This document shows positions 12,841 through 29,638 of a stretch of DNA of 42,784 nucleotides, in pieces. The translations under genes were made by a program, and so were the position numbers. The stretch is from sequence record HE614281.1, one strand, 5' to 3'. Numbering within the stretch: position 1 is the stretch's first letter; each line of letters starts with the position of its first letter. The notes under the pieces are model-generated. The model had not been told where the DNA came from, ran no database searches, and was given only the letters and a program-made list of their open reading frames with translations. Origin of the DNA: Staphylococcus phage SpaA1.

Positions 12841-14319
12841 ATGACTGGAATCAGTTTCTTTAGTTTTAACGGGAAAAGAAATTCAAATGTAATCCCATTG
12901 CAGGGTAAAAAACGCCCTGCATGGGCTCCTTTGGAACGTACATTCCTTGAAGTCCCTCACTATCCAGGTGGGCGTTTGATAAGAACACAAACAAAAATGA
13001 GAAAAATAATTATACCGGTTGCATTATTTTATGAATCTATGGAAGAGGCTGAAAAGTTAAAGGAAGAAATAGCTAATTGGCTTATTACAGATCAACCTCA
13101 AGAACTGATCTTTGATGATGAAAAAGATCGCACGTATTTGGCCCTTATTGATGAATCGTTTGACCCACAGCAATTAGTGAATTTAGGAGAAGGAGTCCTT
13201 ACTTTTGTTTGTGAAATGCCATATAAGTTAGGACCTACTAAAACGGTAGAATTTGAAATGGATGGACGTGGGTTAATAGCAAATGTTCAAAATAAAGGTA
13301 CTGTTCATTCTAATCCTATAATTGAGATTGAAATTACGAAACCGAACACTTTTTTAGATGTATGGTTTGGTGGGGTATCTTTAAGTGATCGAGATTATTT
13401 TCGTATTGGGATGCCGCTAAAAACTGTGGAAAAGCCTGTAGAAAGGAATCAAAGGCTTATATGGGATGAAATGGCCACTACGGTCGGATGGAGTAAAGTC
13501 AGCTCAATGGAAGATGGGGAACCGGTTGGTGAAATGAAATCAGATAAATATCAATTTTATTGTTCTGATTTTGGAACGGGAAAAGGATGGCACGGTGCAG
13601 CTGTTAAAAAAAGTATCCCTGGTGGCCCAGTAGAAGATTTTATCATGCAAGCTTACGTTACTTGTAAGAGCAAGAAAATCAATGAAATGGGACGAGTTGA
13701 GATAGCGATACTCGATGAAAACAGTAAAGTTCTTTCAAAAATTGCCATGAACGATCTCTATTGGCAAGCCGAACAAAATTTTGGAACGATGGTTATTGGA
13801 TACGATAACAAACCAGGAAAAACAGGTTTAATTTATGAGAGTGGTGATTATCCAAATACATGGAATCAGTATTATGGTAGGTTGTGGATTGCTAGGACCG
13901 GAAATGTATGGGAGGCTTATATTTCAAAATTTCTTCCTGGAACAGAAAAAGATGGTTCAGAACGCTTTGCGAGATGGACTGATAAAGACAATAAGCATAT
14001 GGAAAAAGCAGCTCAAATCCAGATTAGTATCATGCAGTGGCAAGATGTACCACCAGTAGAAGCGATGACAGTTTCTGATTTGAAATTTTGGAAAGTAAAT
14101 TTAAATAATCAAAATACACCACCTTATATATTCGATGTTGGTGATAAAGTAGTGATCGATACAGAGAACACTCACGTCAGTATTGAAGGGAAAAACGCGA
14201 TTAACATAAAAGAGTTTTTCAGTAATTTTCCTGTTATTAATAAAGGTGCTAATATAATCGAAATTATGCCATCTGATATTGGAACAGCAAAGGTTACATA
14301 TAGGGAGCGTTTTAGATGA
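12841..14319 (+). CDS. Distal tail protein (Dit) with an internal insertion domain
   Basis: 492 aa directly after the tape measure gene and before the Tal gene; its size implies an evolved Dit with an extra domain. Confidence 0.7.
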   Translation: MTGISFFSFNGKRNSNVIPLQGKKRPAWAPLERTFLEVPHYPGGRLIRTQTKMRKIIIPVALFYESMEEAEKLKEEIANWLITDQPQELIFDDEKDRTYLALIDESFDPQQLVNLGEGVLTFVCEMPYKLGPTKTVEFEMDGRGLIANVQNKGTVHSNPIIEIEITKPNTFLDVWFGGVSLSDRDYFRIGMPLKTVEKPVERNQRLIWDEMATTVGWSKVSSMEDGEPVGEMKSDKYQFYCSDFGTGKGWHGAAVKKSIPGGPVEDFIMQAYVTCKSKKINEMGRVEIAILDENSKVLSKIAMNDLYWQAEQNFGTMVIGYDNKPGKTGLIYESGDYPNTWNQYYGRLWIARTGNVWEAYISKFLPGTEKDGSERFARWTDKDNKHMEKAAQIQISIMQWQDVPPVEAMTVSDLKFWKVNLNNQNTPPYIFDVGDKVVIDTENTHVSIEGKNAINIKEFFSNFPVINKGANIIEIMPSDIGTAKVTYRERFR

Positions 14320-17300
14320 GAACACCAAGTGGATTACTTCATGTTGTTGATTTTAAAACAGATCAAATTATATCAGCTATTCAACCAAAAGATTACTGGG
14401 CTGATAACCGTCATTGGGAAATCAAAAATAACATTGATATATTTGATTTTACAACTTTTGACGGCACTCCACATGCAATTACATTACAACAGCAGAACTT
14501 GGTTTTAAAGGAAGTACGAGATGGTCGCATTGTTCCGTATGTTATTAACAATGAAGTAGAAAAAGATTCAAATGATAGATCTTTAACTGTACACTCGTCT
14601 GGTGCTTGGGTTCAAATAGCGAAAGATGGGATTATTAAACCTCAACGTATAGAGAGCGAAACAGTTAATACGTTTATTGATATCGCTCTTGCCGATTCAA
14701 AATGGCAACGTGGAATAACGGATTATTCTTCATTCCACACTATGACTATCGACGAATTTATTGATCCTCTCACTTTTTTAAAGAAAATTGCTTCTTTGTT
14801 TGAGTTAGAAATCCAATATCGCGTCGAAGTAATGGGTTCCAAGATTACCGGCTGGTACGTAGATATGATAAAGAAGCGAGGGCGAGAAACTGGCAAGGAA
14901 GTAACTCTAGGAAAAGATTTAGTTGAGGTTAGAAGAATTGAACATTCTAGAGATATTTGCACAGCACTTGTCGGATTTGTACGAGGTGAAGGTGACAAAC
15001 TTATCACGGTGGAGAGCATAAATAAAGGACTACCTTACATCGTCGATAATGACGCATTTCAGCGATGGAATGCGCATGGTAAACATAAATTTGGTTTCTA
15101 CACTCCAGAAACAGAAGATCAAAATATGACACCAGAGCGGCTTATGACTCTCATGAAAACAGAATTAAGGAAACGAGTCAATACTTCCGTTTCTTATGTA
15201 GTAGAAGCACAATCGATTGGACGTATTTTCGGACTAGCACATGAACTAATTAACGAGGGTGATACAATCCGAATCAAAGATACAGGCTTCACTCCTAAGT
15301 TATACCTAGAAGCACGTGTAATTGCTGGTGATGAATCTTTTACGGATCCTACACAGGATAAATATGTGTTTGGTGATTATCGTGAACTTACTGATCCGAA
15401 CGAGGAATTAAAAAAGATTTACAATCGAATCCTTAGTAAATTCGGTGAGAAACAAGAAATACTGGATCAGTTAGATAAATTAGTGAAAGATGCAAATGAA
15501 ACAGCTAGTGATGCTAAGAAAGAATCCGAAGCAGCGAAAACATTGGCTGAAAAAGTACAAGAGAATCTTAAAAATAACACGGTAGACATCATTGAAGCAA
15601 AGAATCCACCGACAACAGGGCTTAGACCTTATAAGACACTTTGGCGTGATATTAGCAATGGAAAGCCTGGTATTTTGAAAATATGGACAGGCGCAGCTTG
15701 GGAATCGGTCGTACCTGATGTTGATTCAGTTAAGAAAGAAACGTTGGAACAGGTGACAAAAGATATTAATGCTAGTGCGGAAAAGCTAGATGCTAGAGTT
15801 AAAGAAGCTGAAACGAAAGCAGACAATCTACAAAAAGACTTCAATGCTGTTAAAGGAGAACAAGAAAGAGTCAGTCAGGTAACTAAGGCGCTTGAAGAAA
15901 GTGACGAGGCAACTAAAGAAACAATCACACGTATACAAGGTACTCAAGAAGATATGAACAAAACAATCGTTGAGACTACAAAAGGCGTTGAAGGGCTACA
16001 AAGTACTGTATCCGATATTAAAAAAGATCAAAACGGTATTACAGATCGTGTAGTAAAAACAGAACAAAACATTAACGGTATTTCCAGTTCCATTGAACAA
16101 ATCAACAAAACGTCATCACAAACAATTCAAAAGTTAAATAAAGTTGAAGAAGATGCAAATGGAACAAAGCAAACCATCGAACGAATCGAAAAGAATGTAA
16201 ATAACCTTGATGATGATGTTATCAACCTTGTAAGAGGAACTAAGACGTTAACAACTAACGAAGAATTATCTTTAAAAGGTGCTCGCCTATCTGTTATTAA
16301 GGACACGTACAATGGGAATGCTATCGCGCAAACTGATACAGAATGGCAAGGTATAGCCGTTAAACCCAGTGAATTAATCAAGCGAGGGAAAATAAAAATT
16401 GGTGATACTGTAACATTTTCTGTAACAGCTAGAATGATAGGTGGGGAATCTACACAAGTATTCTTTCCTAACAGTGCTGGTAAAACAACAGTTAATGGAG
16501 AATGGAAAAGAGTTTCGGTAACAATTCCAGTCGGATCTGATGCCGCTGATCCAAATGTTGTATATAGATTCGAAGCTGAATCAATACCTAAAGGCGCTTT
16601 ATACCAACAAACTTCACCTATGCTATCGTTAACTAAAAAAGTTTATCCGTGGAGACCTGCACCTGAAGACCAGGCAGACAGTAACGAATTTATCAAAGTT
16701 ACAACTGAAATTAAAGCAGAAGCTGGGAAAATCTCGACAAAGTTAGAACAGGTTGAGGCTCGTACTGTAGGCGTTGAAAACTGGCTAATCAATACAGGCC
16801 CAAACGAAAGACCTCAAACAATCGGGATGATTGGTGGCGCGGTGTTGAATAAAGTTACATCATTTGTTCAGCCTGGCGAATACGTAGCGATTGAATGTCA
16901 AGATCATACAGACGCCTTTTATCAATTCCATCTAGATAATACTAAGATAGGAGACTTTGAAAAAGGGAAAGATATAACAATATCTTTAGACATTCAAAAT
17001 GATGTGCTTTTAGATTTTATTTTATTCCAATACATCAACGGATCGTGGAGTGAGTCAGTACAAAAGCCTGTGCCAGCTAAAGACTGGCGTCGTGAGTCAT
17101 GGACGTTTAAAATCGATGTTCGTGCTACTGGTTGGGGATTTAGAATTCGTTTTGCTAGAAATGAAGCATCTAAAGGGAAAAGGTTTCGTTTCAAGAAAGC
17201 TAAACTAGAAAAGGGTTCTGTTCCAACAGACTTCAGCAAGTCAACATATGAATTAGAGCAAAGTGTGGATGGTGTAAAATCTACTGTAACTAAGGTGCAG

Positions 17301-19025
17301 GATAACCAAGCCGGATTTGATAAGCGTGTTGCTACTGTAGAAAAAGATGCAACTACCATTAAACAAAATGTCTCTTTCATACAAAATACGCAGACAGAAC
17401 AAGGAAGACAATTACAAGAGGCGAAAGCTGGTTGGGAAAATACTGCGAAAGCACTTGAAGGTAAAGTGGAGCTTAAACAAGTAGAGGATTATGTTGCTGG
17501 ATTTAAGATACCTGAGTTGAAGCAAACAGTTAATAAAAATAATCAAGATTTATTGGGCGAATTAGCTAACAAACTTGCAACTGAGCAATTTAATCAAAAA
17601 ATGACTTTGATTGATAACCGCTTTACTATCAATGAACAGGGTATCAATGCTTCGGCTAAAAAGACAGAGGTATATACAAAAGAACAAGCAAATGGGCAAT
17701 TTGCCACATCATCTTATGTAAGAGATATGGAAACCCGTCTTCAGTTAACTGAAAAGGGTGTTAGTATATCAGTAAAAGAAAATGATGTAATCGCAGCATT
17801 CAATATGAGTAAAGAAAACATTACTTTGAATGCGAACAGAATTAACTTAGTAGGTTTTATTACAGCAAATCATATCAAAGGAAAAGTTTTAGAAGGAGTA
17901 ACACTTAAAACGAGTGGAAACAGATTTGTTGAAATAAATAAACAAGACATGAAGATTTTTGATTTAGATAAGCCACGTGGTTATATAGGATTTATGGAAA
18001 CAAATGATGGAAGTATTCAACCTTCATTAGTCCTTGGTTCTGATAATAGAAAATACGCTGGTACAGGATCATTTTATATTTATCAAGTCATGCCGCGAAG
18101 TAATGGAGTCGATCAACCTTCTAAAGCATATGCAAAATTTGGGATTTCTAAAGGAGAAAATGCAGAAGGAACTAATATTTGGTCAAACTATATTCAAATG
18201 CATAATGACGGTGGACATCTGAGCGTATATTCAGATGGACAATTTCGTTTTCAAAACTTGAATAATATTATTTTTGAATCTGAAGGATGGGCTCCAGGAT
18301 ATGGTTACTTCTCTGTAACTACAACTGAGCCGCATATTTTTACAAATAACGCGGGGCAGTTTACTTTCAAAAGAAAAGGCAGTGACTATAAAATACATTT
18401 CATAAACGGCGCCACCGATCATGATTTAATCATGGGTAATGCAATGATAAGATCAAGTTTTGTACAAGGTTATAACAACGGATTACAGATTAAAGATATG
18501 ATGGGCCAAGGATGGAAAGATATAGAATTAAGAACACTGCGAGCTAAAGAAAATATATCTGCTACAGGACGTATGTGGGCGCAAGAATTTATCCCTAATT
18601 CTTCTCGTACGCTTAAAACGGACATAGAAGACCTTCCATTCTCTGCTTTAGATAAAATCAACTCTGTAAACATCAAACAGTATCACTTTATAAGAGATGT
18701 TGAACGCTTCGAGTCAGGGGAATCTATTACACTACCAATTAATTACGGTATGATTGCGGAGGACTCTGACGATGTATTCACCACACCACAAAAAGACGCT
18801 GTAACACTTTATAGCTCGGTTGCAATTTCTATTCAAGCAATACAAGAAGTTGACTTTAAAGTTAAAAATCTTCAATTTGACCACGGTATGTGGAAGCAGG
18901 AAGTTGACACTCTTAAAGAACAACTTGAAGCAGAAAAACTTGAGAAAGTTTCAATGAAAGCTGAAATTGATGAATTAAAGGTATTAGTACAACAATTAAT
19001 AAATGAGAAACCAGAGCAGCCATAA
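14316..19025 (+). CDS. Tail-associated lysin / tail fibre protein (Tal) with central coiled coil and C-terminal S74-type intramolecular chaperone domain
   Basis: 1569 aa; N-terminal approximately 380 aa is prophage tail endopeptidase-like; long heptad region approximately 15400-16250; C-terminal motif SSRTLKTDIEDLPFSALDKINSVNIKQYHF typical of auto-cleaving tail-fibre chaperone domains. Confidence 0.8.
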   Translation: MRTPSGLLHVVDFKTDQIISAIQPKDYWADNRHWEIKNNIDIFDFTTFDGTPHAITLQQQNLVLKEVRDGRIVPYVINNEVEKDSNDRSLTVHSSGAWVQIAKDGIIKPQRIESETVNTFIDIALADSKWQRGITDYSSFHTMTIDEFIDPLTFLKKIASLFELEIQYRVEVMGSKITGWYVDMIKKRGRETGKEVTLGKDLVEVRRIEHSRDICTALVGFVRGEGDKLITVESINKGLPYIVDNDAFQRWNAHGKHKFGFYTPETEDQNMTPERLMTLMKTELRKRVNTSVSYVVEAQSIGRIFGLAHELINEGDTIRIKDTGFTPKLYLEARVIAGDESFTDPTQDKYVFGDYRELTDPNEELKKIYNRILSKFGEKQEILDQLDKLVKDANETASDAKKESEAAKTLAEKVQENLKNNTVDIIEAKNPPTTGLRPYKTLWRDISNGKPGILKIWTGAAWESVVPDVDSVKKETLEQVTKDINASAEKLDARVKEAETKADNLQKDFNAVKGEQERVSQVTKALEESDEATKETITRIQGTQEDMNKTIVETTKGVEGLQSTVSDIKKDQNGITDRVVKTEQNINGISSSIEQINKTSSQTIQKLNKVEEDANGTKQTIERIEKNVNNLDDDVINLVRGTKTLTTNEELSLKGARLSVIKDTYNGNAIAQTDTEWQGIAVKPSELIKRGKIKIGDTVTFSVTARMIGGESTQVFFPNSAGKTTVNGEWKRVSVTIPVGSDAADPNVVYRFEAESIPKGALYQQTSPMLSLTKKVYPWRPAPEDQADSNEFIKVTTEIKAEAGKISTKLEQVEARTVGVENWLINTGPNERPQTIGMIGGAVLNKVTSFVQPGEYVAIECQDHTDAFYQFHLDNTKIGDFEKGKDITISLDIQNDVLLDFILFQYINGSWSESVQKPVPAKDWRRESWTFKIDVRATGWGFRIRFARNEASKGKRFRFKKAKLEKGSVPTDFSKSTYELEQSVDGVKSTVTKVQDNQAGFDKRVATVEKDATTIKQNVSFIQNTQTEQGRQLQEAKAGWENTAKALEGKVELKQVEDYVAGFKIPELKQTVNKNNQDLLGELANKLATEQFNQKMTLIDNRFTINEQGINASAKKTEVYTKEQANGQFATSSYVRDMETRLQLTEKGVSISVKENDVIAAFNMSKENITLNANRINLVGFITANHIKGKVLEGVTLKTSGNRFVEINKQDMKIFDLDKPRGYIGFMETNDGSIQPSLVLGSDNRKYAGTGSFYIYQVMPRSNGVDQPSKAYAKFGISKGENAEGTNIWSNYIQMHNDGGHLSVYSDGQFRFQNLNNIIFESEGWAPGYGYFSVTTTEPHIFTNNAGQFTFKRKGSDYKIHFINGATDHDLIMGNAMIRSSFVQGYNNGLQIKDMMGQGWKDIELRTLRAKENISATGRMWAQEFIPNSSRTLKTDIEDLPFSALDKINSVNIKQYHFIRDVERFESGESITLPINYGMIAEDSDDVFTTPQKDAVTLYSSVAISIQAIQEVDFKVKNLQFDHGMWKQEVDTLKEQLEAEKLEKVSMKAEIDELKVLVQQLINEKPEQP

Positions 19026-19115
19026 GCTGTTTTTTATTTTGCGCAAAGTACGGCTTTGAATAAATTCAAATCATAGATCAAGAGGGGCGATATCGCTTCT
19101 CTTTATTTTGAGGAG

Positions 19116-20084
19116 ATGATTAGTGTGAAACGAATAGTAGACCAAGCAATTTACGAAAAGCATGTTAGCCAAGGAAATAAAAACCTAGTCAAAGATTTTC
19201 TGATTGAAAAGAAAGCACAAGGAAAAGCGGCAAGCACTTTAAAGCAATACGGTTGGGATTTACGAATTATTTTGTTTCTAATACATCAACACTTCGGAAA
19301 TAAAAATCTTATTGATTTAACGCGTAAAGATATTCGAAATTTATCTATTATTTTTCAAGATATGAGGATGTCTAATGCTCGTGTGAACGGATTAATGAGT
19401 GCATTAAGGTCCGCGTTAGAGTTTTGTGCGGATGATGATGACTATGATTATGAATTTAATGTAGGTTCACGGGTACGTGGTTTACCTAAGAATCCAGTTA
19501 GAGAAATCACTTTTATAACAGAAGAACAAATTGAGTGGTTAATCGATGAGCTAATAGCACAAGAAAGATATATGTTAGCAACGTATTTAGCACTTTCTTA
19601 TTACAGTGCAGCTAGAAAGAATGAGGTATACCAGGTTCAAAAAGAAGGGCTGACAGAACAATATTATACAAATGTGGTACGAGGAAAACGGGGTAAGAAG
19701 TTTAGATTATATTACAATCACCGGGTGCAGAAATGCATTCGTTTATATATAAATCAGCGAGGTAAGGATACTATTCCAGATTTGTTTGTGCGTGTGTATA
19801 AGAATGGTGAGAGAAAGAGATTGAACAAGAGTGTATTTAATTATTGGTGCGATATATTTGCTAAGATGCTGAACGAAAAGGAAGGGAAGGAATTTAAAAT
19901 GAATCCTCACTGTTTTCGACATAGCAGATTAGATAACTTGAAAGTACAAGGCGTACCACTTGAAAAACTAAAATCACTCGCCAATCATTCTGACATCTCA
20001 ACTACGGAGTCTTATCTAAAAGATAGAAGCGAAGAAGATATTGCAGAAATATTTGGAATGGATCCAAGTTACTTTGCAGCATAA
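19116..20084 (+). CDS. Tyrosine site-specific recombinase (XerC/XerD-like, no N-terminal arm-binding domain)
   Basis: 322 aa; core-binding region; catalytic ARKNE (Arg), HCFRHSR (His-x-x-Arg), and Tyr nucleophile in TTESYL. Confidence 0.8.
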   Translation: MISVKRIVDQAIYEKHVSQGNKNLVKDFLIEKKAQGKAASTLKQYGWDLRIILFLIHQHFGNKNLIDLTRKDIRNLSIIFQDMRMSNARVNGLMSALRSALEFCADDDDYDYEFNVGSRVRGLPKNPVREITFITEEQIEWLIDELIAQERYMLATYLALSYYSAARKNEVYQVQKEGLTEQYYTNVVRGKRGKKFRLYYNHRVQKCIRLYINQRGKDTIPDLFVRVYKNGERKRLNKSVFNYWCDIFAKMLNEKEGKEFKMNPHCFRHSRLDNLKVQGVPLEKLKSLANHSDISTTESYLKDRSEEDIAEIFGMDPSYFAA

Positions 20085-20097
20085 AAGGAGTGAAGAA

Positions 20098-20379
20098 ATG
20101 ACAATTGAAGTAGGAGTACTTATCGCAATCGCGTCAGCATTGATAGGATATATGTCTTATTCACTGAATCGCTCGAAAGAGATTAAGTCAGATGGTAGAC
20201 AAGGGGCAGAAACAAACGCGAAATTGGAGTACATCAGTAAAGGAGTTGATGATATTCGGATTGATTTAAAGGCAAATGAAAAGCAAATGATTGTACTTGG
20301 AGAGCGTATTACAAGGGTTGAAGAGAGTGCCAAACAAGCGCATAAGCGCTTAGATAATGTAGAAAAGGAGATAGATTAG
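20098..20379 (+). CDS. BhlA/UviB-like holin-associated membrane protein
   Basis: 93 aa; single N-terminal transmembrane segment (IEVGVLIAIASALIGYMSY) followed by charged coiled coil; first gene of lysis cassette; RBS AAAAGGAGTGAAGAAATG. Confidence 0.5.
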   Translation: MTIEVGVLIAIASALIGYMSYSLNRSKEIKSDGRQGAETNAKLEYISKGVDDIRIDLKANEKQMIVLGERITRVEESAKQAHKRLDNVEKEID

Positions 20380-20381
20380 TT

Positions 20382-20594
20382 ATGAATCAATCAAAAGAAA
20401 ATATCAAAAAACGATTCCGCAACTGGAAAACATGGGTTGCGGTTTTTTCTTTGCTTGGATTTTTATTTACGAAATTTGGTGTGCCAGAAGCTAAGAGCTT
20501 TTTGGATGAATTAGCACCTTATTTGTTGACAGTAGGTATCGCATTGGGGATTTGGTCTGATCATGATGTAAATAGCGAAGGAGAGGATAAATAA
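20382..20594 (+). CDS. Holin (phage holin family 4 / SPP1-XhlB-like)
   Basis: 70 aa; two hydrophobic segments; charged C-terminus; immediately upstream of and overlapping the endolysin start (ATAATG). Confidence 0.7.
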
Positions 20595-21412
20595 TGGGTT
20601 ACACTGTAGATATTTCAAAATGGAATGGTGATATTAATTGGCCCGTGGCAAAACAATACATTGATTTCATTATCGCTCGTGTACAAGATGGTTCGAATTA
20701 TGTAGATCCATTATATAAGGGGTATGTACAAGCTATGAAGCAACATGGTATTCCTTTTGGTAACTATGCATTTTGTCGTTTCGTTTCTGAGAATGACGCA
20801 CGTGTAGAAGCTCGAGACTTCTGGAATCGTGGAGACAAGAGTGCAACAGTCTGGGTGGCTGATGTGGAAGTAAAAACAATGGATGATATGAGAGCCGGCA
20901 CGCAAGCGTTTATCGATGAACTACGCCGATTAGGTGCTCAAAAAGTCGGTTTATATGTTGGCCATCATATGTATGCTCCATTCGGAATGGCAAATGTAAA
21001 ATCTGACTTTGTATGGATTCCTCGATATGGCGGGAATAGACCAGCTTATCCATGTGATATTTGGCAATACACTGAAACAGGAAGTGTTCCTGGTATCGGA
21101 AAGTGTGATTTAAACAAATTAATTGGAAGCAAGTCGTTAGATTGGTTTACAAATAAATCGTATAAACAAGAAGGAGTGGAGATTATCGTGAACAAACATA
21201 ATAAGGTGATTACTTATGAATTTGGTGTAAATTTAATTCCAGAAATGATTCAAATGATGGATACGCTTGGATACACTTCAAAAATTGTTTCTCGTGGAGA
21301 TCGTCAGGGGCTTGTTTATTTTGAGTCGGATTATCGTCAAGGTAGCGAGCTAGATAAAGCAACAGCGTGGTTAGATGCTAAAGGACTTAAATACTTTTAT
21401 ACAAAAGAATAG
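20594..21412 (+). CDS. Endolysin: GH25 muramidase catalytic domain plus C-terminal cell-wall-binding domain
   Basis: N-terminus [16 protein letters not shown] and an acidic pattern typical of Glyco_hydro_25; C-terminal ~80 aa form a separate domain; last gene before a strong terminator. Confidence 0.85.
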
Positions 21413-21430
21413 TTTTATGAACAAAAATTA

Positions 21431-21460
21431 GAGCCGTCAAACGACGGCCCTTTTATTTCT
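21431..21460. terminator. Bidirectional rho-independent terminator closing the lysis operon (+) and the converging minus-strand gene
   Basis: GAGCCGTCAAACGACGGCCC hairpin followed by TTTTATTTCTT on plus; A/T-rich on both sides. Confidence 0.65.
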
Positions 21461-21782
21461 TCCATTCAACAAGAGTACGTTTGTTACATCTACGACAAAC
21501 AAATCCCTCAGCTTTATGTACAACAGGTTGTTTTTTGTTGCAGTTTGGGCATTTTACAAGTTGCTTACCTAAAGCTGAATATATAAAGAGCGCAGAAAAG
21601 AATGTTAAACCTAAACCTGGTAAAATTCCAATTATGGTAAAGCATAACACTACTGAAATTAATAAACCGAAAGATCCAATTAAAAAATATATAACTCTCT
21701 TCAACTGATTAGCTGTAGAACTTTTCTTTTCTTCTAATTCAATAATGAATGATTCCCCATCAGCTGTTTTTCGTAACTCCAT
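21453..21782 (-). CDS. Membrane protein with two transmembrane segments and C-terminal CxxC...CxxC zinc ribbon; accessory (moron-like)
   Basis: 109 aa; hydrophobic stretch VIYFLIGSFGLLISVVLCFTIIGILPGLGLTFFSALFIY; CPNC...CRRC motif; opposite strand to flanking phage modules. Confidence 0.5.
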   Translation of the reverse strand: MELRKTADGESFIIELEEKKSSTANQLKRVIYFLIGSFGLLISVVLCFTIIGILPGLGLTFFSALFIYSALGKQLVKCPNCNKKQPVVHKAEGFVCRRCNKRTLVEWKK

Positions 21783-21850
21783 AAAACCGCCCCCTTAAAT
21801 TAATTAAATCATACCAATTTAAGAAGAAAATTGTAAGATTCTTTTTCTAA

Positions 21851-22072
21851 TTACATCCAGAAATCATTTTCATCTATATTTTTTCCTAACTTCTTCAAAC
21901 CTCTAACAATTTGAGATATTGTAGAGTATTTGGGTTTGTATTTTGTATCACTACATAATCTAGATATAGTGCCTGTACTTAATTTTGATTTTTTTTCAAG
22001 TTCAATTTGTTGAATTCCCTGCCTATCTAACCATTTCCCGAATTTACTACGCTTTTTTCCTAAACCGAACAT
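21851..22072 (-). CDS. Small XRE-family HTH DNA-binding protein
   Basis: 73 aa; helix-turn-helix LSTGTISRLCSD...STISQIVRGL; transcribed divergently from the repeat array at 22165-22325. Confidence 0.5.
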   Translation of the reverse strand: MFGLGKKRSKFGKWLDRQGIQQIELEKKSKLSTGTISRLCSDTKYKPKYSTISQIVRGLKKLGKNIDENDFWM

Positions 22073-22164
22073 TTAAACTCACCTCATCAACAGAATGACC
22101 AATTCCTCAAATTTTTAAACTTAGAAAAAATTTTGAGAAATTGTCCGAGCCCACCCTAATATGA

Positions 22165-22325
22165 TGTACCAAGGTAGTTACCACGGTAAGAGAAGTTCCA
22201 GTTACCAAAGTAGCTATCAAGGTAGGAACAGATGATTTTACCATGGTAGGTATCATGGTAAGTTTTAGATTTCTACCACGGTAGCTACCAGGGTTCCTAT
22301 CAAGGTAACGCTACCATGGTAATGA
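22165..22325. repeat. Array of 10 copies of a 10-bp near-palindromic motif TAYCANGGTA arranged as 5 doublets with ~35-37 bp periodicity
   Basis: Motif copies at approximately 22168, 22180, 22203, 22215, 22240, 22252, 22275, 22287, 22299 and 22313: TACCAAGGTA, TACCACGGTA, TACCAAAGTA, TATCAAGGTA, TACCATGGTA, TATCATGGTA, TACCACGGTA, TACCAGGGTT, TATCAAGGTA, TACCATGGTA. The array lies between the divergent HTH gene and the FtsK-like operon. Confidence 0.75.
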
Positions 22326-22383
22326 GTGTGTGAAGCGTTACTTTATCTAGATTTTATATTCTGTTTATAGAGGGGCGAAAGAA

Positions 22384-22515
22384 ATGAACATCAAGATGGC
22401 AGCATCAGAAGAAATTTGTGAGTATTGTAAATGTTTATTATCCGATTGGTTGTTTTGGAGATGGAATGGAAAAAAGTATTGCTCAGAGTCTTGTGCGGAA
22501 TACGATAAAAAATAA
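22384..22515 (+). CDS. Small Cys-rich (zinc-binding?) protein
   Basis: 43-aa ORF MNIKMAASEEICEYCKCLLSD...CSESCAEYDKK with RBS AGAGGGGCGAAAGAAATG; below the ORF-track size cutoff. Confidence 0.35.
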   Translation: MNIKMAASEEICEYCKCLLSDWLFWRWNGKKYCSESCAEYDKK

Positions 22516-22534
22516 ATGACGAGGAGTGGAGTCT

Positions 22535-22855
22535 ATGTTTACAAGAAAGCAAGTCATCCCTTTTCGTTCATTTATGGATGGATCATACAAAATGAAAGAG
22601 CAGAAAATACAAAGATATCATTCATTAAGTCCGTTAGCATTTGTTCATATGTCGGATTCTATTTTAAATACGTATCTGGCATTAGGGATAATGGGAACGG
22701 CTTTAACTGGGGCAGTCATGTTAGAAAGATATCTTGTACGAAATGATTATGTATCAGCGGCTAAATTATTATCCAATGGGATTCATTATGGCGTGAAAAT
22801 TGGTGGAGTGGGATTCATTACCTATGTATTTGTTCGAATTGTAATTATGTTCTAG
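22535..22855 (+). CDS. Small membrane protein (two hydrophobic segments)
   Basis: ATG at 22535 after GAGGAG; hydrophobic segments LALGIMGTALTGAVML and IGGVGFITYVFVRIVIMF; immediately upstream of FtsK-like gene. Confidence 0.45.
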   Translation: MFTRKQVIPFRSFMDGSYKMKEQKIQRYHSLSPLAFVHMSDSILNTYLALGIMGTALTGAVMLERYLVRNDYVSAAKLLSNGIHYGVKIGGVGFITYVFVRIVIMF

Positions 22856-22865
22856 GAGGCTTGTC

Positions 22866-24032
22866 ATGGGAATCATAAAAGAATGGCTTCATAAGAGGTC
22901 TTTAAAGCACCAGATTATTGAGGTGTTCCAAAAGGCAGGTTTATATACGGAACATCAAACACGTGGAGGGAAAATCCCAATTTATCCAAAGGTTCATGCT
23001 GTTTTTTCTTCAAACGAAAGCGTGAAATATGTATTTACTATCCCCAACGGATTAGATCCAAAGACAATTGAAAAGAAATGGTTTTGCTTTCAACAAATAT
23101 TTGGACGGAATGTAGCAATTGAGGGAGATATTAAAAAGTTTGTGCTCAATGTATTTCATTCTGATTGTGGTTTGAAACAATACAACTACAGTTATAAGCA
23201 ATGGCAGCCATTCATAAAAGAATGCCGTCTTCCTATTGTAGTAGGGCGTGACCAGTTTGGAAACATGCTTGTTTATGATATGGTAAACCCCAATACACCC
23301 CATTTACTCATTGCAGGAGAAACAGGTAGCGGAAAAAGTAGCATGGTACGTGTTGTACTATCTACACTCATTCAATGCGTGTCTCCTGATAAATTATATT
23401 TGTACCTAGGCGACTTGAAAAATTCTGAATTTCATTTCTTGCGTAGAGTAAAACATGTGAAAGAAGTGTGCATGGAAGAAATTGAAATGAAAGTCATGCT
23501 TCATAAGGTTTGGAATGAAATCAGGGAACGCAGAAAGCTCATGGAAGAATATGAAGTGGATCACATTGATGAGTACAATAAATTAAATCCTGATAAACAG
23601 AAACCCTATATTCTGTTAGCTATTGATGAAGTAGCGATGCTACAAGATGAAAAAGAATGTATGACGACAATAGAAAAAATATCGGCAGTTGGTCGGGCAC
23701 TAGGCGTATTCCTCATGCTATCTATGCAAAGACCAGATGCAAAGGTGTTAGATGGTAAGTTAAAGCTAAATATGACGGTTAGAATGGGCTTTAAATGCGA
23801 TAACACAATTAATAGTAATATTATGGGTACATCTGGATCAGAACACTTAGAACAATCTGGCCAAATGATTTTAAAGTTAAATGGATTAAAGAAAGTGCAA
23901 GCTCCTTATTTAGAACTTAATAAAGCAAAGCAAATAGTTGAACCTTACCGTTTACTCAAAGAAGATATAACGTTTCAGAATTCGCTACAACAAGAACTTC
24001 CTTTGTTTGGAGTGTTGGAACATGAAGAGTAG
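22866..24032 (+). CDS. FtsK/SpoIIIE-family DNA translocase-like ATPase (TraB/Tra-like single-protein DNA transfer or segregation ATPase)
   Basis: 388 aa; Walker A LLIAGETGSGKSS; Walker B LLAIDEVAML; spacing and size typical of FtsK-like Tra proteins of small Gram-positive integrative elements and plasmids. Confidence 0.8.
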   Translation: MGIIKEWLHKRSLKHQIIEVFQKAGLYTEHQTRGGKIPIYPKVHAVFSSNESVKYVFTIPNGLDPKTIEKKWFCFQQIFGRNVAIEGDIKKFVLNVFHSDCGLKQYNYSYKQWQPFIKECRLPIVVGRDQFGNMLVYDMVNPNTPHLLIAGETGSGKSSMVRVVLSTLIQCVSPDKLYLYLGDLKNSEFHFLRRVKHVKEVCMEEIEMKVMLHKVWNEIRERRKLMEEYEVDHIDEYNKLNPDKQKPYILLAIDEVAMLQDEKECMTTIEKISAVGRALGVFLMLSMQRPDAKVLDGKLKLNMTVRMGFKCDNTINSNIMGTSGSEHLEQSGQMILKLNGLKKVQAPYLELNKAKQIVEPYRLLKEDITFQNSLQQELPLFGVLEHEE

Positions 24033-24630
24033 AGATAAAGCGATTATAAAAGACTTATGCCGCTTTAGATGCCTATCACGAGATGATATTATCGATTTGC
24101 ATTTCCAAGGACTCAAGAAAGCTGTGACCAGTTGCAATACGGTTATGAAACGATTAAGTCGAGATGGGAGTGTGGAAGTAAATGTGTTACAGAAACCATA
24201 TATCTACTTTCCACAACCGAGTCCGATTCGAAAAACAAGTCAAAAGATTCCGCACTTCCTTGCTATTGTGAATGTATATAAGCAACTTCTTCAGTACGAA
24301 AAGCCTAAATTGTTTAAAGTCGAGCCGAAGTATGGTAAAGCATATATGGAGCCAGACATATTTGCAATTTGGCGACAATCTCCATTTTTCATAGAAGTGC
24401 AGAATTCGGTATACAGTAAGAAAGTAATGCAAGAGAAATTAAACCGATATGAATTTTACTTTCATAGTTTGGAATGGCAACAAGAACCATGGCAACCCAA
24501 GAAATCGAAATACTTCCCTTCTCTTCTGGTAATTACCGATAGCCAGTATGACATCTCCTCTTCAAATTTTCGCATATTTCAAGCTAAATCCATTCACGAT
24601 TTCATGAATCAAATGGTTGTTAAGACATAA
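24007..24630 (+). CDS. Replication-relaxation-like family protein (putative winged-helix DNA-binding protein)
   Basis: 207 aa overlapping the FtsK-like gene by 26 nt; positively charged N-terminal region; gene pairing typical of FtsK-like plus replication-relaxation partners; assignment from composition and context only. Confidence 0.35.
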   Translation: MECWNMKSRDKAIIKDLCRFRCLSRDDIIDLHFQGLKKAVTSCNTVMKRLSRDGSVEVNVLQKPYIYFPQPSPIRKTSQKIPHFLAIVNVYKQLLQYEKPKLFKVEPKYGKAYMEPDIFAIWRQSPFFIEVQNSVYSKKVMQEKLNRYEFYFHSLEWQQEPWQPKKSKYFPSLLVITDSQYDISSSNFRIFQAKSIHDFMNQMVVKT

Positions 24631-24634
24631 CAAG

Positions 24635-25516
24635 TTAACCATCAATAAATTCTTTGAAAAAAGCTAGTCCATTATATTTATTTGCCTTACGATTTGCAAG
24701 GTTATGTATCTCTCTAAAGCTATCAATGTAGTTATAGACGATTTTTTTGAACGTTCGAGTAAAGTATCCAATAGGATTTTTCATCGATTTTCCATTATGC
24801 TCGTACTTATGTGTTTTAAAGTACAAAACAGAAGAAGCATTTGCAAGAAGGGTGTGAAATACATCTGTATCTGCTAATAAATTAAATTGTTTTGCAGCCT
24901 TCTTTGCAATGTTTCTGGCATTTTTGAAAGATTCATTAATCACATTGGGTGAAAAAGCAGTTTGTAATTCCATACGCATAGATTGTGGCACACGATAATC
25001 GATGAAGTCTAAATCATGTTGAAAAGATTGCGAAACTTCTTCTTTACGTTTATTTATATCTTTTATCTTTTGTTTTAAGGTTTTTGTAGTTGTTTTCTTG
25101 GTGTGACAAATTTCCACAGTTTTAGTAGGGGCTTCTGTGACAAGTTGTTCTTCCGTAATAATTGGCTGAATAATGATTATATTACTCGTTTGTCTCATGT
25201 CACTCTTACGTTTCATTTCCAGTTGCTTAATAATGCCAAGTGATTCTAAGTAGTGGCATGCACGGATAACAGTTCTACGGCTAATATCAAGATCTTCGGC
25301 AATGTGTTTTTTCGTTCTGAAAGATACACCAAGAAATTTAGAAGAATAATTGTGTAATTTATTTAATACAGCTAATTGATTTTTATTTAATTGGTCAGCA
25401 AATTGCTTTTTATATGCACGTACAGTGTCATTTAATTCCTTGAGAGTTTGAAAAGATACTAAGTTTTCGTATGTTTCTGTACTAGCAAGAATAGTAATTG
25501 CTTGTTTCTTTTTCAT
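24635..25516 (-). CDS. HTH-containing protein, putative plasmid-type replication initiator (Rep-like)
   Basis: 293 aa; HTH KHIAEDLDISRRTVIRACHYLESLGII; K-rich linker; adjacent to integrase and FtsK-like gene as in Rep-Tra-Int modules. Confidence 0.35.
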   Translation of the reverse strand: MKKKQAITILASTETYENLVSFQTLKELNDTVRAYKKQFADQLNKNQLAVLNKLHNYSSKFLGVSFRTKKHIAEDLDISRRTVIRACHYLESLGIIKQLEMKRKSDMRQTSNIIIIQPIITEEQLVTEAPTKTVEICHTKKTTTKTLKQKIKDINKRKEEVSQSFQHDLDFIDYRVPQSMRMELQTAFSPNVINESFKNARNIAKKAAKQFNLLADTDVFHTLLANASSVLYFKTHKYEHNGKSMKNPIGYFTRTFKKIVYNYIDSFREIHNLANRKANKYNGLAFFKEFIDG

Positions 25517-25659
25517 AAGGGCTCGTCTCCTTTAAAAGTAAAAAAGCAACAGTATGCCACAAAATGTAAGCAAACTGTTGCGGAGGAACCCTTATGTACG
25601 ATAAAATAAGGTACATAAAGAGTTACAGCAAGTGTTTGCCTAGTTACGTTAGGCGGACG

Positions 25660-25689
25660 GTTAATAAAGTGTTCCACCACTTTATTAAC
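25660..25689. repeat. Perfect 12-bp inverted repeat with 6-bp spacer (GTTAATAAAGTG-TTCCAC-CACTTTATTAAC) downstream of integrase 3' end; candidate attP core or operator
   Basis: Read directly from the sequence; it sits in the 373-bp non-coding region between the Rep-like and integrase genes. Confidence 0.5.
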
Positions 25690-25889
25690 ACGCTGTGCTC
25701 TTTTATTTTTTTATTAGTTTAATTTCTATTTTTTCGGTAACGAATATGGTCACAAACAACCAGAAAAGTGTTGCCATTTATATTTTTTGATGTAGCGTAA
25801 AACTGCTTAATATAGATGTTTTGTGCGCTTTTTGGAAATTAAAGTTTTATATATCAATGATTACTCTGATCATTGCGAATTGCATGATA

Positions 25890-26990
25890 TCAACTCTTTA
25901 AAGGGCGTAGGTCACGAATTGGTAACGAAAATGATAAATCTTGTTCCATAAATGCAACCACTTCTGCTTGTTTTGACGGATATAAATGACTATATGTATT
26001 TAACGTCGTTGACACATCCGAATGTCCTAGGCGCTGGGCTACCACAAGTGGACTGACACCTCTATTTATTAAATAAGATGCATGGGAATGTCGAAATTCA
26101 TGAAGTAGAATTTTTGGTATTCCAGAAGCAACAACATATTTGGCAAAACGTTTATGAAGGGTAGCTGTCGCTATACTTGTGTAAAATTCACCAAATACAA
26201 TATAATCATTTTTTATCGGTGCTCCTAATGTAGCATGTTCTTTTAATGTTTTCAATAAGTCTATGACAAGAGACGGTAGCATAATAATACGATTTGATGC
26301 TTTGGTTTTGGGTTTTGTAACTTGTCTGTTATAGTTGGTTTTATTAATATTAATTGATTTTTCTTCAAAGTTAATATCTTCCCATGTTAATGCTAGCAAT
26401 TCGCCAGTTCTTGCCCCGCTATAATAAAGAGTCGTAAAAAAGGCTTGATACAGTAAATCATCTACTACATGAATGAATTGTTTAAACTCATCAAACTCCC
26501 AAAAGTTTAATCGTTTATTCGATTCTTTTTCAAAGTTGCCAGCAATTTTTGCTGGATTACTTGTGAGACCAAAAAACTTTATTGCGAAATTAAAAATTGA
26601 GGACAGTACGGTATGAATCTTTTTCAAATAAACAGCTGAATACTTATGAATAATTTCGTTTTGGTAGATCATGATATGCTTAGCAGTTATGTTGTTAATT
26701 TTTGATTTCCCGAATTTTTTTAGTAAATGATTTTCAAGGATGGCTTTAATTGTGTTAATTGAAGACTGTTTTCTTCTCTGGCAATACCAATCAAAATAGC
26801 TATCAGCAACTTGAGCAAAAGTTAAACTTGAAGTTGTTTCTTTTTCCACTAACATTTTGGCTTCCGCTTCACGAGCTTCTTTTTTTGTTTTAAATCCACG
26901 ACGTTTTACTTGTTTTTGAGTGCCATCAAACTGACGGACTCTGACAACGAAGAAATATGTTCCGCGTTCTTTATCTTTGTAGACCACCAT
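25890..26990 (-). CDS. int: Tyrosine integrase (phage integrase family with N-terminal arm-type DNA-binding domain)
   Basis: 366 aa; N-terminal arm-binding-like domain; catalytic region with R, HEFRHSHASYL (His-x-x-Arg), and Tyr in LNTYSHLY. Confidence 0.9.
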   Translation of the reverse strand: MVVYKDKERGTYFFVVRVRQFDGTQKQVKRRGFKTKKEAREAEAKMLVEKETTSSLTFAQVADSYFDWYCQRRKQSSINTIKAILENHLLKKFGKSKINNITAKHIMIYQNEIIHKYSAVYLKKIHTVLSSIFNFAIKFFGLTSNPAKIAGNFEKESNKRLNFWEFDEFKQFIHVVDDLLYQAFFTTLYYSGARTGELLALTWEDINFEEKSININKTNYNRQVTKPKTKASNRIIMLPSLVIDLLKTLKEHATLGAPIKNDYIVFGEFYTSIATATLHKRFAKYVVASGIPKILLHEFRHSHASYLINRGVSPLVVAQRLGHSDVSTTLNTYSHLYPSKQAEVVAFMEQDLSFSLPIRDLRPLKS

Positions 26991-27507
26991 AGAAAATCCT
27001 CCTGCATATATAAAGATTGATAATTCGATTTATTGAGTAGATTATAACTTGTTTGTTACCAAAAGAAAAGATGTCCTAATCAGAACATCTTAAGATTGAT
27101 AAAAAAATAAATTGGCTGGTTAAACATATATTAGAGTGGCTGGTTCTAAATATAACCATATATGTTAGAAAGTTACGAATTCAGAGTTTTGAAAATGATT
27201 GTTGGTTTTTCAGTTAAACAATTGTTGAGAAAGTTTCCTGAATGCTGATTCACATATGTATACGTGTTATAATAATTGTGTATATGTTTCACGATAAACT
27301 CAGTAATACCAAGGGTTTATCAAACTGAAAAATAATAATTGAACATAAATAAAGACCCATAGAAGCGTGTGTAAGAGGTGCGAGCTGAAAATTCCTCTTA
27401 CACCGTTTACCTAACCATCGCTTAGGAAACAACTGCCCCGTATGAGTCAATCTTAGTATATCATGTTTCCAAAATATTACCATTGAGAAAGTTAGGATGG
27501 AGGATTT

Positions 27508-28746
27508 ATGTTTGGAGAAGGGGGAGTTTTTATGTGTTTTCGTAAAAAAATATGTGATTTAATCGAAGACAGGGACGATCTAAACTTTACAGATGTCGCA
27601 AATAAAATGGGTGTTTCAAAACAATATTTACAAAAGTTTAAAAATCAAGGTAACATCAGTTTTCCTAATTTACTGAGATTGGCTTCAGTTGTAAGTACAA
27701 AAAGTGAAGAGCTTTCAATGTTTTTACATGAGTGGTGCGTAGAATTAGATAGTACAGAAGCCATTAAGCATAGTTTTGAATATGCAGCATTGGTTCGTGA
27801 TAAGGTTTTATTGAATAAATTACTAGAAAAACACAAAAATGAATCTGGTACAGTTGCAGAGTATGTAAATGTTTATGGAGTATTATATAAGTATATGAAT
27901 GATGAAATTTCAGGTACTGAAATTATTAAGTGCTTAAAGATGTATAACCGTCCTTCTGATAACATGTTAAATATTTTGATTGATATTATGAAATGTTACG
28001 ATTATTATCATCAAAAGAAATTCAATGCAATGTTTGATTTGGTTGACGAAATTGAGAAAGAGTTAATCTCAATTGATGAGAGTGATCGTAAAATGTTTCT
28101 TAAGGAATGTTATATGTATCGACTTGCAGAAGTGTTTTCCCCGCTTAATCTACAAAGAAAAAATTTAGAGTCTTCAAGATATTATGCCAAGTTATTAATA
28201 GAAGCAAATCTATGTACAAAAACTGTTTCAGATGCTTTATATTTATTGGGGATGTCATATTTAATTGATGATGAGGAACTTTGTTTAGAGTATTTACAGG
28301 AAAGTTATAATTTATCCAAAAAAGTAAATGACGCTTCAATTGAAGCAGCAGCGCGTTATAATTTAGATGTTGTCAAAATGTATTTAAACCTTAGTTTGCC
28401 ATTAGATTCAGATGTACGTTTAATCAATTTTCAAAATAATCCCACAGATGAAGATTCACGAGATGGATTAAAAGAAATTTTAAAGTCAAATGGAGAAAGA
28501 GATTTTTTAAGACTTTTTCTAGCAATCACTGATACAGAGCCTAACAGAATATACGAATGTTTTAAAGAATTTCTTGTTCAATCGAACTACCTCTTTGTAA
28601 GTTTAGTAGCTAAAGAAATAAATAGAAGAGGGGATAATTCCTTGCTAGTACAGCAAATGATTGATTATAATATGGATAAAGGAGTGGATGAAAATGAAAA
28701 AATTTACTTTAGTACTTTGCGCCTTTTCAATGTTAGCTGTGAGTAG
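27508..28746 (+). CDS. RNPP-family HTH plus TPR-like receptor, AimR-like (arbitrium-type) transcriptional regulator
   Basis: 412 aa; N-terminal HTH FTDVANKMGVSKQYLQKFKNQGNISFPNLLRLASVV; remainder helical repeat-rich; immediately followed by overlapping signal-peptide mini-ORF; alternative start ATG 27532 after GAAGGGGGAG. Confidence 0.6.
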   Translation: MFGEGGVFMCFRKKICDLIEDRDDLNFTDVANKMGVSKQYLQKFKNQGNISFPNLLRLASVVSTKSEELSMFLHEWCVELDSTEAIKHSFEYAALVRDKVLLNKLLEKHKNESGTVAEYVNVYGVLYKYMNDEISGTEIIKCLKMYNRPSDNMLNILIDIMKCYDYYHQKKFNAMFDLVDEIEKELISIDESDRKMFLKECYMYRLAEVFSPLNLQRKNLESSRYYAKLLIEANLCTKTVSDALYLLGMSYLIDDEELCLEYLQESYNLSKKVNDASIEAAARYNLDVVKMYLNLSLPLDSDVRLINFQNNPTDEDSRDGLKEILKSNGERDFLRLFLAITDTEPNRIYECFKEFLVQSNYLFVSLVAKEINRRGDNSLLVQQMIDYNMDKGVDENEKIYFSTLRLFNVSCE

Positions 28747-28810
28747 TGTTTCGTATAATATTATAAAAAAAGGTTCATTTCAATCTGTAGAAATTAAACC
28801 AGGTGGCTAA
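28694..28810 (+). CDS. Secreted pro-peptide, AimP-like (MKKFTLVLCAFSMLAVSSVSYNIIKKGSFQSVEIKPGG)
   Basis: 38-aa ORF in +1 frame overlapping the last 53 nt of the receptor gene; RBS GGAG 9 nt upstream; N-terminal Sec signal-like segment; followed directly by a terminator. Confidence 0.5.
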   Translation: MKKFTLVLCAFSMLAVSSVSYNIIKKGSFQSVEIKPGG

Positions 28811-28840
28811 AAAGCGCAGCATATGCTGTGCTTTTTTATT
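28811..28840 (+). terminator. Rho-independent terminator after the AimP-like ORF
   Basis: AGCGCAGCATATGCTGTGCT hairpin followed by TTTTTTATTT. Confidence 0.65.
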
Positions 28841-29019
28841 TGGGGCAGCTCTATTAATGAGACTGAGTTTTATCGGTAAACTAAAAAAAGAAATAAAGAA
28901 TTTGTTTACTCTTCTATTTTTCCTTTCAATATATGATAAAATTTTCGACAAATAGAGCCTAAACTGTTGGAAAAGAGTAAATAAAAATGGGATTAAACGG
29001 ACTTATAGGGGGAATAGAA

Positions 29020-29118: not shown

Positions 29119-29121
29119 AAG

Positions 29122-29625: not shown

Positions 29626-29638
29626 ACAGGAGGTAGAC

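Follow-up and report, generated by a model that had tools for sequence, protein, structure and literature searches.

XerC and XerD act as a heterotetramer on the 28-base-pair (bp) dif site (11+6+11) and are activated by FtsK, and Rci-type shufflons hold multiple inverted sfx repeats of about 19 bp between alternative 3' segments of their target gene. Closer to the present case, a description of plasmid-prophage groups in B. cereus includes eight in which there is a Xer-like tyrosine enzyme or else a small serine resolvase, read there as serving dimer resolution; phiS58 is grouped among plasmid prophages in that work, and the enzyme of the Waukeshavirus plasmid prophages is named there a "Xer family recombinase" (PMC8026635). 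Here we consider an enzyme of this kind in the genome of Staphylococcus phage SpaA1 (HE614281.1), a stretch of 42,784 nucleotides (nt) that was analysed at its full length and that we call the window; the gene in question is an open reading frame (ORF) at 19116-20084. It is a real and intact gene for an active-looking, simple tyrosine recombinase with two domains, as in Xer or Cre, and we tentatively read the enzyme as a Cre/Xer-like multimer resolvase, giving this reading somewhat less than an even chance. The resolvase reading is nonetheless the likeliest one, because the enzyme is a simple two-domain protein, because it is the sole recombinase in a plasmid-prophage family, because eight of the plasmid-prophage groups in the work just mentioned have a resolvase-type recombinase of some sort, and because a distant branch of its family includes pBS32, which stands for a recognised phage-plasmid community (PMC7969092).

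The recombinase gene and the structural arm came into the window together, from a plasmid prophage of the phiS58/Waukesha92 type, and a homologous crossover with a BtCS33-type integrative phage left the gene as an intact chimera. Its role, in contrast, is inferred. The Cre-like enzyme would bind two identical phage-borne sites and, by strand exchange through a Holliday-junction intermediate, would turn multimers of the circular phage genome, be it a plasmid prophage or a replicative circle, into monomers.

The recombinase gene and its product

A preliminary description of this genome had reported a 322-amino-acid (aa) XerC/D-like ORF that lacks an arm-binding domain and carries R, HxxR and a Y in ESYL. 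Both statements stand, with a shorter start likelier than the one given then:

19116-20084, plus strand: tyrosine recombinase ORF with core-binding and catalytic domains; 322 aa from ATG 19116, probably 319 aa from GTG 19125

The Shine-Dalgarno (SD) sequence GAGGAG at 19110-19115 immediately abuts ATG 19116, while its spacing to GTG 19125 is 9 nt, and the RefSeq homologues are 319 aa long (960 nt); it is this spacing and these homologues that make the shorter product the probable one. Pfam Phage_integrase (PF00589) matches residues 133-304 (E 4.6e-15; 56.2 bits against a cut-off of 27.1), so that the product lies above the Pfam gathering score for the tyrosine recombinase superfamily. In the same Pfam scan no arm-binding domain was found in it, unlike in the integrase at 25890-26990, and in this respect, as well as in having no adjacent att-like sequence, the enzyme differs from lambda-type integrases. 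The catalytic residues R167, K191, H265, R268, H291 and Y300, the last within TESYL, align with those of Pyrococcus XerA (4a8e) and do not vary among 22 aligned homologues with 34-81% identity to the window protein. What is more, all ten alleles compared are intact at 969 nt, and the ratio of nonsynonymous to synonymous substitution rates (dN/dS) across them is 0.04-0.09, a range that is alike in integrative and plasmid lineages; the protein is strongly constrained by purifying selection.

Among known enzymes, the closest solved relatives in a PDB search are XerA and XerD, the XerD alignment spanning both domains, and XerA_Arch is the best-scoring NCBIfam family; the catalytic residues are common to the window enzyme and XerA, XerC and XerD. 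That said, the scores lie far under the family cut-offs (79.8 against 220 for XerA_Arch, and, for the XerC and XerD equivalogs TIGR02224 and TIGR02225, 71.5 against 335.15 and 49.3 against 329.6), XerS gives no NCBIfam match, and the window gene is phage-borne with no cognate dif coupled to it. It also differs from the single-recombinase systems of XerA, XerS and XerH in that no dif-type site or conserved dyad was found beside it. The likeness to P1 Cre/loxP lies in a two-domain tyrosine recombinase for which multimer resolution is proposed and which is the sole site-specific recombinase of a plasmid prophage, a trait that holds in phiS58 but not in the window, where there is a classical integrase too; the differences are that the window enzyme has no Cre sequence match at E<=1e-3, that no lox-type site was found, and that the gene lies in the late operon. 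As an aside, the profile of the recombinase family finds a near full-length match (E 1e-8) in PDB chain 9i5v_14 (401 aa), which bears the label "Ribosome-associated translation inhibitor RaiA", and this label may be wrong for that chain.

Carriers of the gene and the hybrid origin of the window

The recombinase is already known, being annotated in dozens of deposited phages and plasmids. It is called "site-specific recombinase/integrase" in 19 phage records, is present on 19 plasmids of the B. cereus group and occurs in many chromosomes of that group, one 90%-identity protein cluster alone counting 1989 member sequences. The closest relatives are the Waukeshavirus plasmid prophages phiS58 (XO29_0018), Waukesha92 (gp52), TP21-T and BMBtp3, whose proteins are 98-99.7% identical to that of the window (99.7% for the "site-specific recombinase" of the first three) and whose genes likewise stand between the Tal fibre and the lysis genes. 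Within the phiS58/Waukesha92 type of plasmid prophage the enzyme is the sole site-specific recombinase. The phiS58 record, circular and 46.6 kilobases (kb) long, shares its entire structural arm with the window at 99.5%; it differs in bearing StbA/ParM and RepA and no integrase, as the other prophages of its group have ParM/RepA and no integrase, where the window has a BtCS33-type integrase/FtsK/AimR arm and a chimeric recombinase. A second group, made up of BtCS33 (ORF15, 95% identical), phi4I1, BtiUFT6.51-F, PfEFR-4/5, MY192 and 11143, has the gene in the same position with 92-95% protein identity. As in the window, a second recombinase is found in BtCS33 (a classical integrase) and in 11143 (a 445-aa "site-specific recombinase"), whereas these phages have other head and packaging modules (HK97/P27 type) and are without the dif-like element described below.

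The gene is also dispensable in places. Namely, it is the only gene of a presence/absence cassette of about 1.04 kb at the fibre-to-lysis junction, and in the prophage phBC6A51 and in phIS3501 and A16R4 the same fibre 3' end is followed directly by the lysis genes. Similarly, phi4J1 has the head and tail arm of phiS58 together with a classical integrase and is without the recombinase, so that one and the same structural arm occurs with the gene in a plasmid form (phiS58) and without it in an integrative one; phi4J1, phIS3501 and A16R4 are relatives deposited as complete phage genomes.

Two further observations were made among these records. In BtCS33, 11143, PfEFR-4 and the pLUSID2 prophage, a gene of about 180 aa annotated "integrase" directly follows the ArpU-type late regulator, itself annotated "transcription regulator" in BtCS33 (L020 37941-38483; L025 36743-37285; L026 40499-41041; L034 1321-1863); this is a third tyrosine-recombinase-like gene, and none was noticed in the window. 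In addition, the 79.8-kb record MW302330.1, "Stenotrophomonas phage TS-12", includes the tail fibre, recombinase, holin and amidase genes of a B. cereus phage at about 91% identity and is probably chimeric or contaminated.

The window DNA as a whole matches siphoviruses of the B. cereus group, and it does so in two parts. The part running from 38163 through 42784 and 1 to 20103 is 99.5-100% identical to phiS58, and the part at 17229-35722 is 98.3% identical to BtCS33. In a mismatch profile of 100-nt bins, there are no mismatches to phiS58 in bins 18600-19799 and none to BtCS33 from 19900 to 21499. Because the bins switch there from phiS58-perfect to BtCS33-perfect, the crossover is placed inside the recombinase ORF:

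19800-19900: interval of homologous crossover between phiS58-type and BtCS33-type parents, inside the recombinase ORF, from the 100-nt mismatch profile

As judged from this profile, the window copy of the recombinase is an intact chimera, phiS58-type up to the crossover and BtCS33-type in its C-terminus. The recombinase ORF and the fibre 3' end are the main stretch of homology common to both parental lineages around the junction. The window is itself a circularly closed genome and a very recent hybrid, with a phiS58-like structural and late-regulatory arm (1-20103 and 38163-42784) and a BtCS33-like arm for lysis, FtsK, integrase, AimR and early functions (20104-38162). Beside the integrase, a 412-aa regulator at 27508-28746 is an arbitrium receptor of the AimR family (NCBIfam NF038310; E 6.4e-84; 282 bits against a cut-off of 70), and for this reason peptide signalling probably takes part in the lysis-lysogeny decision of this phage. 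A module of FtsK/SpoIIIE, Replic_Relax and a DnaD_N-like helix-turn-helix protein (22866-25516) adjoins the integrase, and the FtsK and Replic_Relax pair recurs, with a DNA identity of about 78%, on over 100 large plasmids of Bacillus.

Beyond the B. cereus group, homologues extend to the following:

Geobacillus icigianus prophage (contractile-tail type), 64% identity: fibre, membrane-protein ORF, divergent RHH-like ORF, sigma-A promoter with palindromes, recombinase, XhlA, 98-aa ORF, lysin
72 further phage records, chiefly 74-104-kb siphoviruses of Staphylococcus, Enterococcus and Lactobacillus: 34-41% identity
About 43 B. subtilis plasmids of 83-86 kb, including pBS32: about 40% identity; in pBS32 after a LysM lysin, with a similar layout

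In the three phages examined from the second of these groups, 6ec, vipetofem and Ldl1, the recombinase is last in the tail and lysis unit, directly after the endolysin and at a convergent junction. In Geobacillus, 6ec, vipetofem, Ldl1 and pBS32 alike, it is the lysis cassette that recurs beside the recombinase, and no particular fibre gene; the family is one borne by tailed phages and phage-plasmids of the Bacillota inside the late tail-to-lysis unit, beside the lysis genes. The full-length homologues of Staphylococcus cluster D (6ec, SEP9), of the vipetofem-like Enterococcus and Ldl1/Lenus-like Lactobacillus phages and of pBS32 (34-41% identical) all stand at the end of such a unit; they differ from the window in that the gene comes after the endolysin rather than before the lysis genes, and in that their genomes, of 74-104 kb, have their own replication machinery. 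By description only, Tyrovirus gp50 is comparable as a tyrosine recombinase within the structural module of Bacillus phages with several recombinases, and it was puzzling to its describers too, but it lies between the neck and tape-measure genes and has an N-terminal integrase domain.

The Geobacillus homologue has surroundings of its own. In G. icigianus (L010, 9729-10000) it is preceded by a sigma-A promoter, TTGACA-17-TATTAT, and flanked by the perfect palindromes AAGTTATATAACTT and ATATAGTTATA-TAACTTA-TATAACTATAT, which could be operators or a recombination site; the promoter-region palindrome has no counterpart in the window. The divergent 55-aa ORF upstream matches Pfam RHH_1 below the cut-off (E 0.004). 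With its own promoter and palindromes, this homologue looks like an autonomous unit outside the late programme.

Gene neighbourhood and the dif-like motif

The following features of the window bear on the setting of the gene:

14316-19025, plus strand: tail fibre/Tal (antireceptor) gene, 1569 aa, a single unbroken ORF without alternative C-terminal cassettes
19013-19040, plus strand: terminator-like hairpin (19013-19033) and T-run overlapping the fibre stop codon
19080-19115, plus strand: second terminator/attenuator-like hairpin, AAGAGGGGCG-ATAT-CGCTTCTCTT at 19080-19103, with T-run and SD GAGGAG; the "leader" of the preliminary description
20098-21412, plus strand: lysis cassette of a 93-aa membrane/coiled-coil protein (phrog_1863), a holin (20382-20594) and an endolysin (20594-21412)
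21430-21451: bidirectional terminator at the convergent end of the late unit
25890-26990, minus strand: classical arm-type integrase with Arm-DNA-bind_4, SAM_3 and catalytic domains (Pfam), within the BtCS33-derived segment
41914-41941, plus strand: dif-like motif CTGTCATATAA-TAACTA-TTATGTAAACT, inside a conserved noncoding element at about 41763-42014

The recombinase does lie between the tail fibre gene and the lysis cassette, as had been noted, with gaps of 90 nt to the former and 13 nt to the latter, and no promoter was detected between fibre gene and recombinase in the window. The endolysin combines GH25 with the cell-wall-binding domain PlyG-CBD. The classical integrase, which had likewise been recognised earlier, has the domains expected of that name and is likely the true prophage integrase; about 200 bp downstream of it, a perfect 12-bp inverted repeat with a 6-bp spacer (GTTAATAAAGTG-TTCCAC-CACTTTATTAAC, 25660-25689) is a candidate for an attP core or a terminator.

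The sequence in front of the recombinase had also been taken for an early-gene leader that recurs at 42352 and 42765, a view we reject. Namely, TTTATTTTGAGGAG has no match at either place at <=2 mismatches, its 3 matches at this threshold compare with 1.03 expected, and a relaxed motif matches 3 times where 1.4 matches are expected, with 20 of 100 shuffles giving as many; the motif is at chance level and the T-run is a terminator tail followed by an SD. In an alignment of the fibre-to-lysis junction of 11 carriers and 3 recombinase-less relatives, the stem of the hairpin at 19080-19103 co-varies among carriers while its loop varies between 3 and 10 nt, a corresponding hairpin with TTTTTATTTTG and an SD stands before XhlA in the recombinase-less phages, and the same hairpin/T-run/SD element follows the recombinase in L007-L009. 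For these reasons the "leader", as the alignment has it, is a generic junction of terminator and ribosome-binding site between modules. The terminator tail GCTnnTTTTTATTTTG followed by an SD recurs at module boundaries (19026-19041, 19095-19110, about 42352-42370 and about 42765-42781, as well as the fibre-to-lysis junction of related phages), and it is plausible that it serves as micro-homology for modular exchange.

Several candidates for a recombination site near the gene were considered and set aside. The hairpin at 19080-19103 could be viewed as a 9+6+9 core, which is at odds with its loop of 3 to 10 nt and its co-varying stem, with the unrelated stem in L007, whose protein is 92% identical, and with the equivalent hairpin in recombinase-less phages. 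The palindrome TTTGAATAAATTCAAA (19055-19070) is not conserved among carriers, and the pLUSID2 prophage, taken up as a possibly informative case, proved to be a remnant truncated by IS110.

A dif-like site had been thought of in connection with dimer resolution, and the expectation was borne out only so far as a motif goes. In the window, no exact or near-exact B. subtilis dif is present at <=3 mismatches, the references being ACTTCCTAGAATATATATTATGTAAACT for B. subtilis and the predicted ACT[G/A]CCTATAATATATATTATGTTAACT for the B. cereus group (PMC3025954). The motif at 41914-41941 matches the dif arms at 18/22 in the window and in phiS58, and at homologous positions the score is 21/22 in BMBtp3, HD-771 p05, pBWB404 and p30077_2 and 20/22 in IEBH, against a background of 16/22 in BtCS33, 17/22 in 11143 and 16/22 in PfEFR-4. 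Of 200 simulated genomes, 27 reach at least 18 and none exceeds 19; the window motif taken alone is not significant (p~0.14), whereas the homologous sites at 20-21/22 are beyond this null. Its right arm agrees with B. subtilis dif at 11/11 and with B. cereus-group dif at 10/11, and a constant 6-bp spacer with a conserved right arm is found at the homologous noncoding position in eight elements, five of which match the B. cereus-group dif at 20-21/22. In the variant of the window and phiS58 the right arm is kept and the left arm has diverged, while BMBtp3 has a host-like left arm together with a 98%-identical enzyme.

The noncoding element around the motif (about 250 nt, 41763-42014, upstream of the DUF2829/terS genes) is present on about 75 prophage-sized Bacillus plasmids and in the phages IEBH, phi4J1, PfNC7401 and LY4. 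The 5' block TTTATGCAGGAAAT and the 3' block ATTTCCCTGCATAAA of the element are complementary, and no Rfam family matches the window or the element. The element may serve as a Xer site with accessory sequences, or else as a late promoter, a leader or a pac region. The motif itself is a candidate Xer-type site, uncoupled from the recombinase, since each occurs without the other among relatives; if it is a Xer site, the host CodV/RipX would be its more likely user.

Weighing the proposed functions

Dimer resolution for an episomal prophage, one of the roles suggested earlier, is the reading best supported by context, and it survives in part: the enzyme is the sole recombinase in plasmid prophages and is found on plasmids, but no cognate site was identified and the window has an arm of integrative type. 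Also in its favour are the catalytic hexad and two-domain build, the low dN/dS with alleles of uniform length, the presence of the gene in plasmid-borne phiS58 against its absence from integrative phi4J1 with its like structural arm, and the promoter and palindromes that the Geobacillus homologue has to itself. A number of observations weigh against the resolvase reading. Some of them concern the DNA target. Within the recombinase ORF there is no frozen synonymous patch that would betray a lox/dif-type site, the longest invariant run being 10 nt and 20% of third positions being invariant. The junction alignment gives no conserved site or dyad in the flanks, where the upstream hairpin behaves as a terminator, and a search for k-mers of >=13 and for dyads (11-bp arms, 6-8-bp spacer) common to the genomes of phiS58, BtCS33, 11143 and PfEFR-4 yielded none outside the gene and the fibre end; nor was a 13+8+13 lox-type site found. 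The conserved element with the dif-like motif occurs without the recombinase in IEBH, pBFI_5, pBMB0229 and phi4J1, and the recombinase without the element in BtCS33, 11143 and PfEFR-4. Moreover, the gene is placed behind two terminator-like hairpins with no detectable promoter, so that expression in lysogens is no more than presumed; the window's own lysogeny arm is of integrative type, and no record in the plasmid collection matches the whole integrase arm at high identity. The recombinase is equally conserved in the integrase-bearing BtCS33 and 11143, has homologues in reportedly lytic or virulent phages (Staphylococcus cluster D, BE02), and is absent from IEBH and apparently from more than 50 other prophage-sized Bacillus plasmids. 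Finally, the PDB search matched neither the solved Cre nor the solved lambda Int structures at E<=1e-3. It is because no site was found, because of the late-operon place behind two terminators, because of the equal conservation in integrative and apparently virulent phages, and because many plasmid prophages do without the gene that we keep our confidence below the halfway mark.

The main rival, which we hold to be unlikely though not negligibly so, is that of a lytic-cycle enzyme: expressed with the late and lysis genes, it would act on replicating phage DNA, for example by converting circles to multimers or the reverse so as to provide or tidy up DNA for packaging, and would have no part in prophage maintenance. 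The late-unit position by the lysis genes, kept in six lineages (B. cereus group, Geobacillus, 6ec, vipetofem, Ldl1 and pBS32), fits such a role, as does the lack of a detected promoter in front of the gene in the window. Homologues occur in phages that have no lysogeny genes and for which no lysogens were detected (PMC6507118, PMC10117716), the latter work having obtained none with BE02, and the Tyrovirus paper argues likewise for gp50. On the other hand, phi4J1, phIS3501 and A16R4 dispense with the gene although they agree with carriers in structural arm or fibre end, in Geobacillus the gene is served by a sigma-A promoter of its own and neighboured by a divergent regulator-like ORF, the virulent-phage homologues are just 34-41% identical and may differ in function, and a target site is as wanting here as for a resolvase. 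In a wider version, to which we give a similarly low likelihood, a pan-Bacillota recombinase family tied to the late operon and the lysis cassette would have a real function other than prophage integration. This would be either an undescribed lytic-cycle step on replicating or packaging DNA, or else the "virulent" siphoviruses of 75-95 kb (6ec/SEP9, vipetofem, Ldl1) would be cryptic phage-plasmids of the pBS32 kind, marked as such by this family and able to persist as episomes.

It is improbable that the enzyme is an alternative integrase, used for a second integration site in a resident plasmid or the chromosome, or for switching between plasmid and integrated states. Such a use of recombinases is expected of phage-plasmids (PMC7969092), and J7W-1 has been reported to integrate into a 69-kb plasmid (PMC4113786). 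In pBMB165 (L021/L022, about 5447 and about 53160), about 30 kb of a second replicon sits precisely within the 46 nt that separate the recombinase of the BMBtp3 prophage from XhlA; the insert holds ParA, a primase, another tyrosine recombinase and many insertion sequence (IS) elements, and the split falls in the terminator T-run. As a natural att experiment, the comparison of pBMB165 with packaged BMBtp3 is uninformative: the two junctions have no common core and transposase (IS) fragments lie at their flanks, for which reasons the fusion was more likely IS-mediated. What is more, the enzyme has no arm-binding domain, there is no att-like sequence adjoining it beyond the generic terminator tail, the chromosomal carriers end after the lysin beside the host dus like ordinary prophages, and the window already has a classical integrase.

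Slightly more doubtful still is a partnership with host Xer at 41914-41941, in which the phage enzyme would perhaps bind the diverged left arm and the host RipX, a XerD homologue, the right arm. The dif-like architecture in eight elements, five of them beyond the null, and the kept right and diverged left arm in the window and phiS58 are in keeping with it, but site and gene are uncoupled among relatives, BMBtp3 combines a nearly identical enzyme with a host-like left arm, and the motif belongs to a larger conserved stretch ahead of the packaging genes, which could function as late promoter, as leader or as pac region.

We consider it very improbable that the gene is a selfish single-gene cassette or, as had also been suggested, the integrase of a nested element. 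The unit of about 1.04 kb is polymorphic for presence and absence at the fibre-to-lysis junction, and in BMBtp3 and L007-L009 a similar terminator with TTTTTATTTTG stands on both sides. That said, this flank is generic, being found also at 42352 and 42765 and in recombinase-less phages, and it is missing downstream of the gene in the window, phiS58, BtCS33, 11143 and PfEFR-4; the gene stands alone, with no cargo or att-like repeats, and its strong purifying selection and conserved synteny are like those of a resident phage gene. The remaining proposal, an Rci-type shufflon invertase diversifying the C-terminus of the tail fibre, has adjacency to the fibre gene in its favour and nothing else, and we regard it as refuted, as far as sequence analysis can decide, on the grounds that the preliminary description had itself named, inverted repeats in 14.3-21.5 kb being at chance level with none credible (the best, of 14-25 nt at 71-94%, are scattered), the fibre being one unbroken ORF with no alternative 3' cassettes, the conserved neighbour in the distant lineages being the lysis cassette, and the gene being absent from phages with the same fibre end or structural arm.

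As a feature, the recombinase is ordinary, and reviews mention it as a Xer-family recombinase. The window, in turn, is a clean natural case in which a plasmid prophage has recombined with an integrative phage by way of a gene common to both. Should a role in multimer resolution or in the lytic cycle be demonstrated, it would explain why a second recombinase stands beside the lysis genes in phages of very different lifestyles, and it would bear on the episomal persistence of therapy phages such as Sextaecvirus and the vipetofem-like phages.

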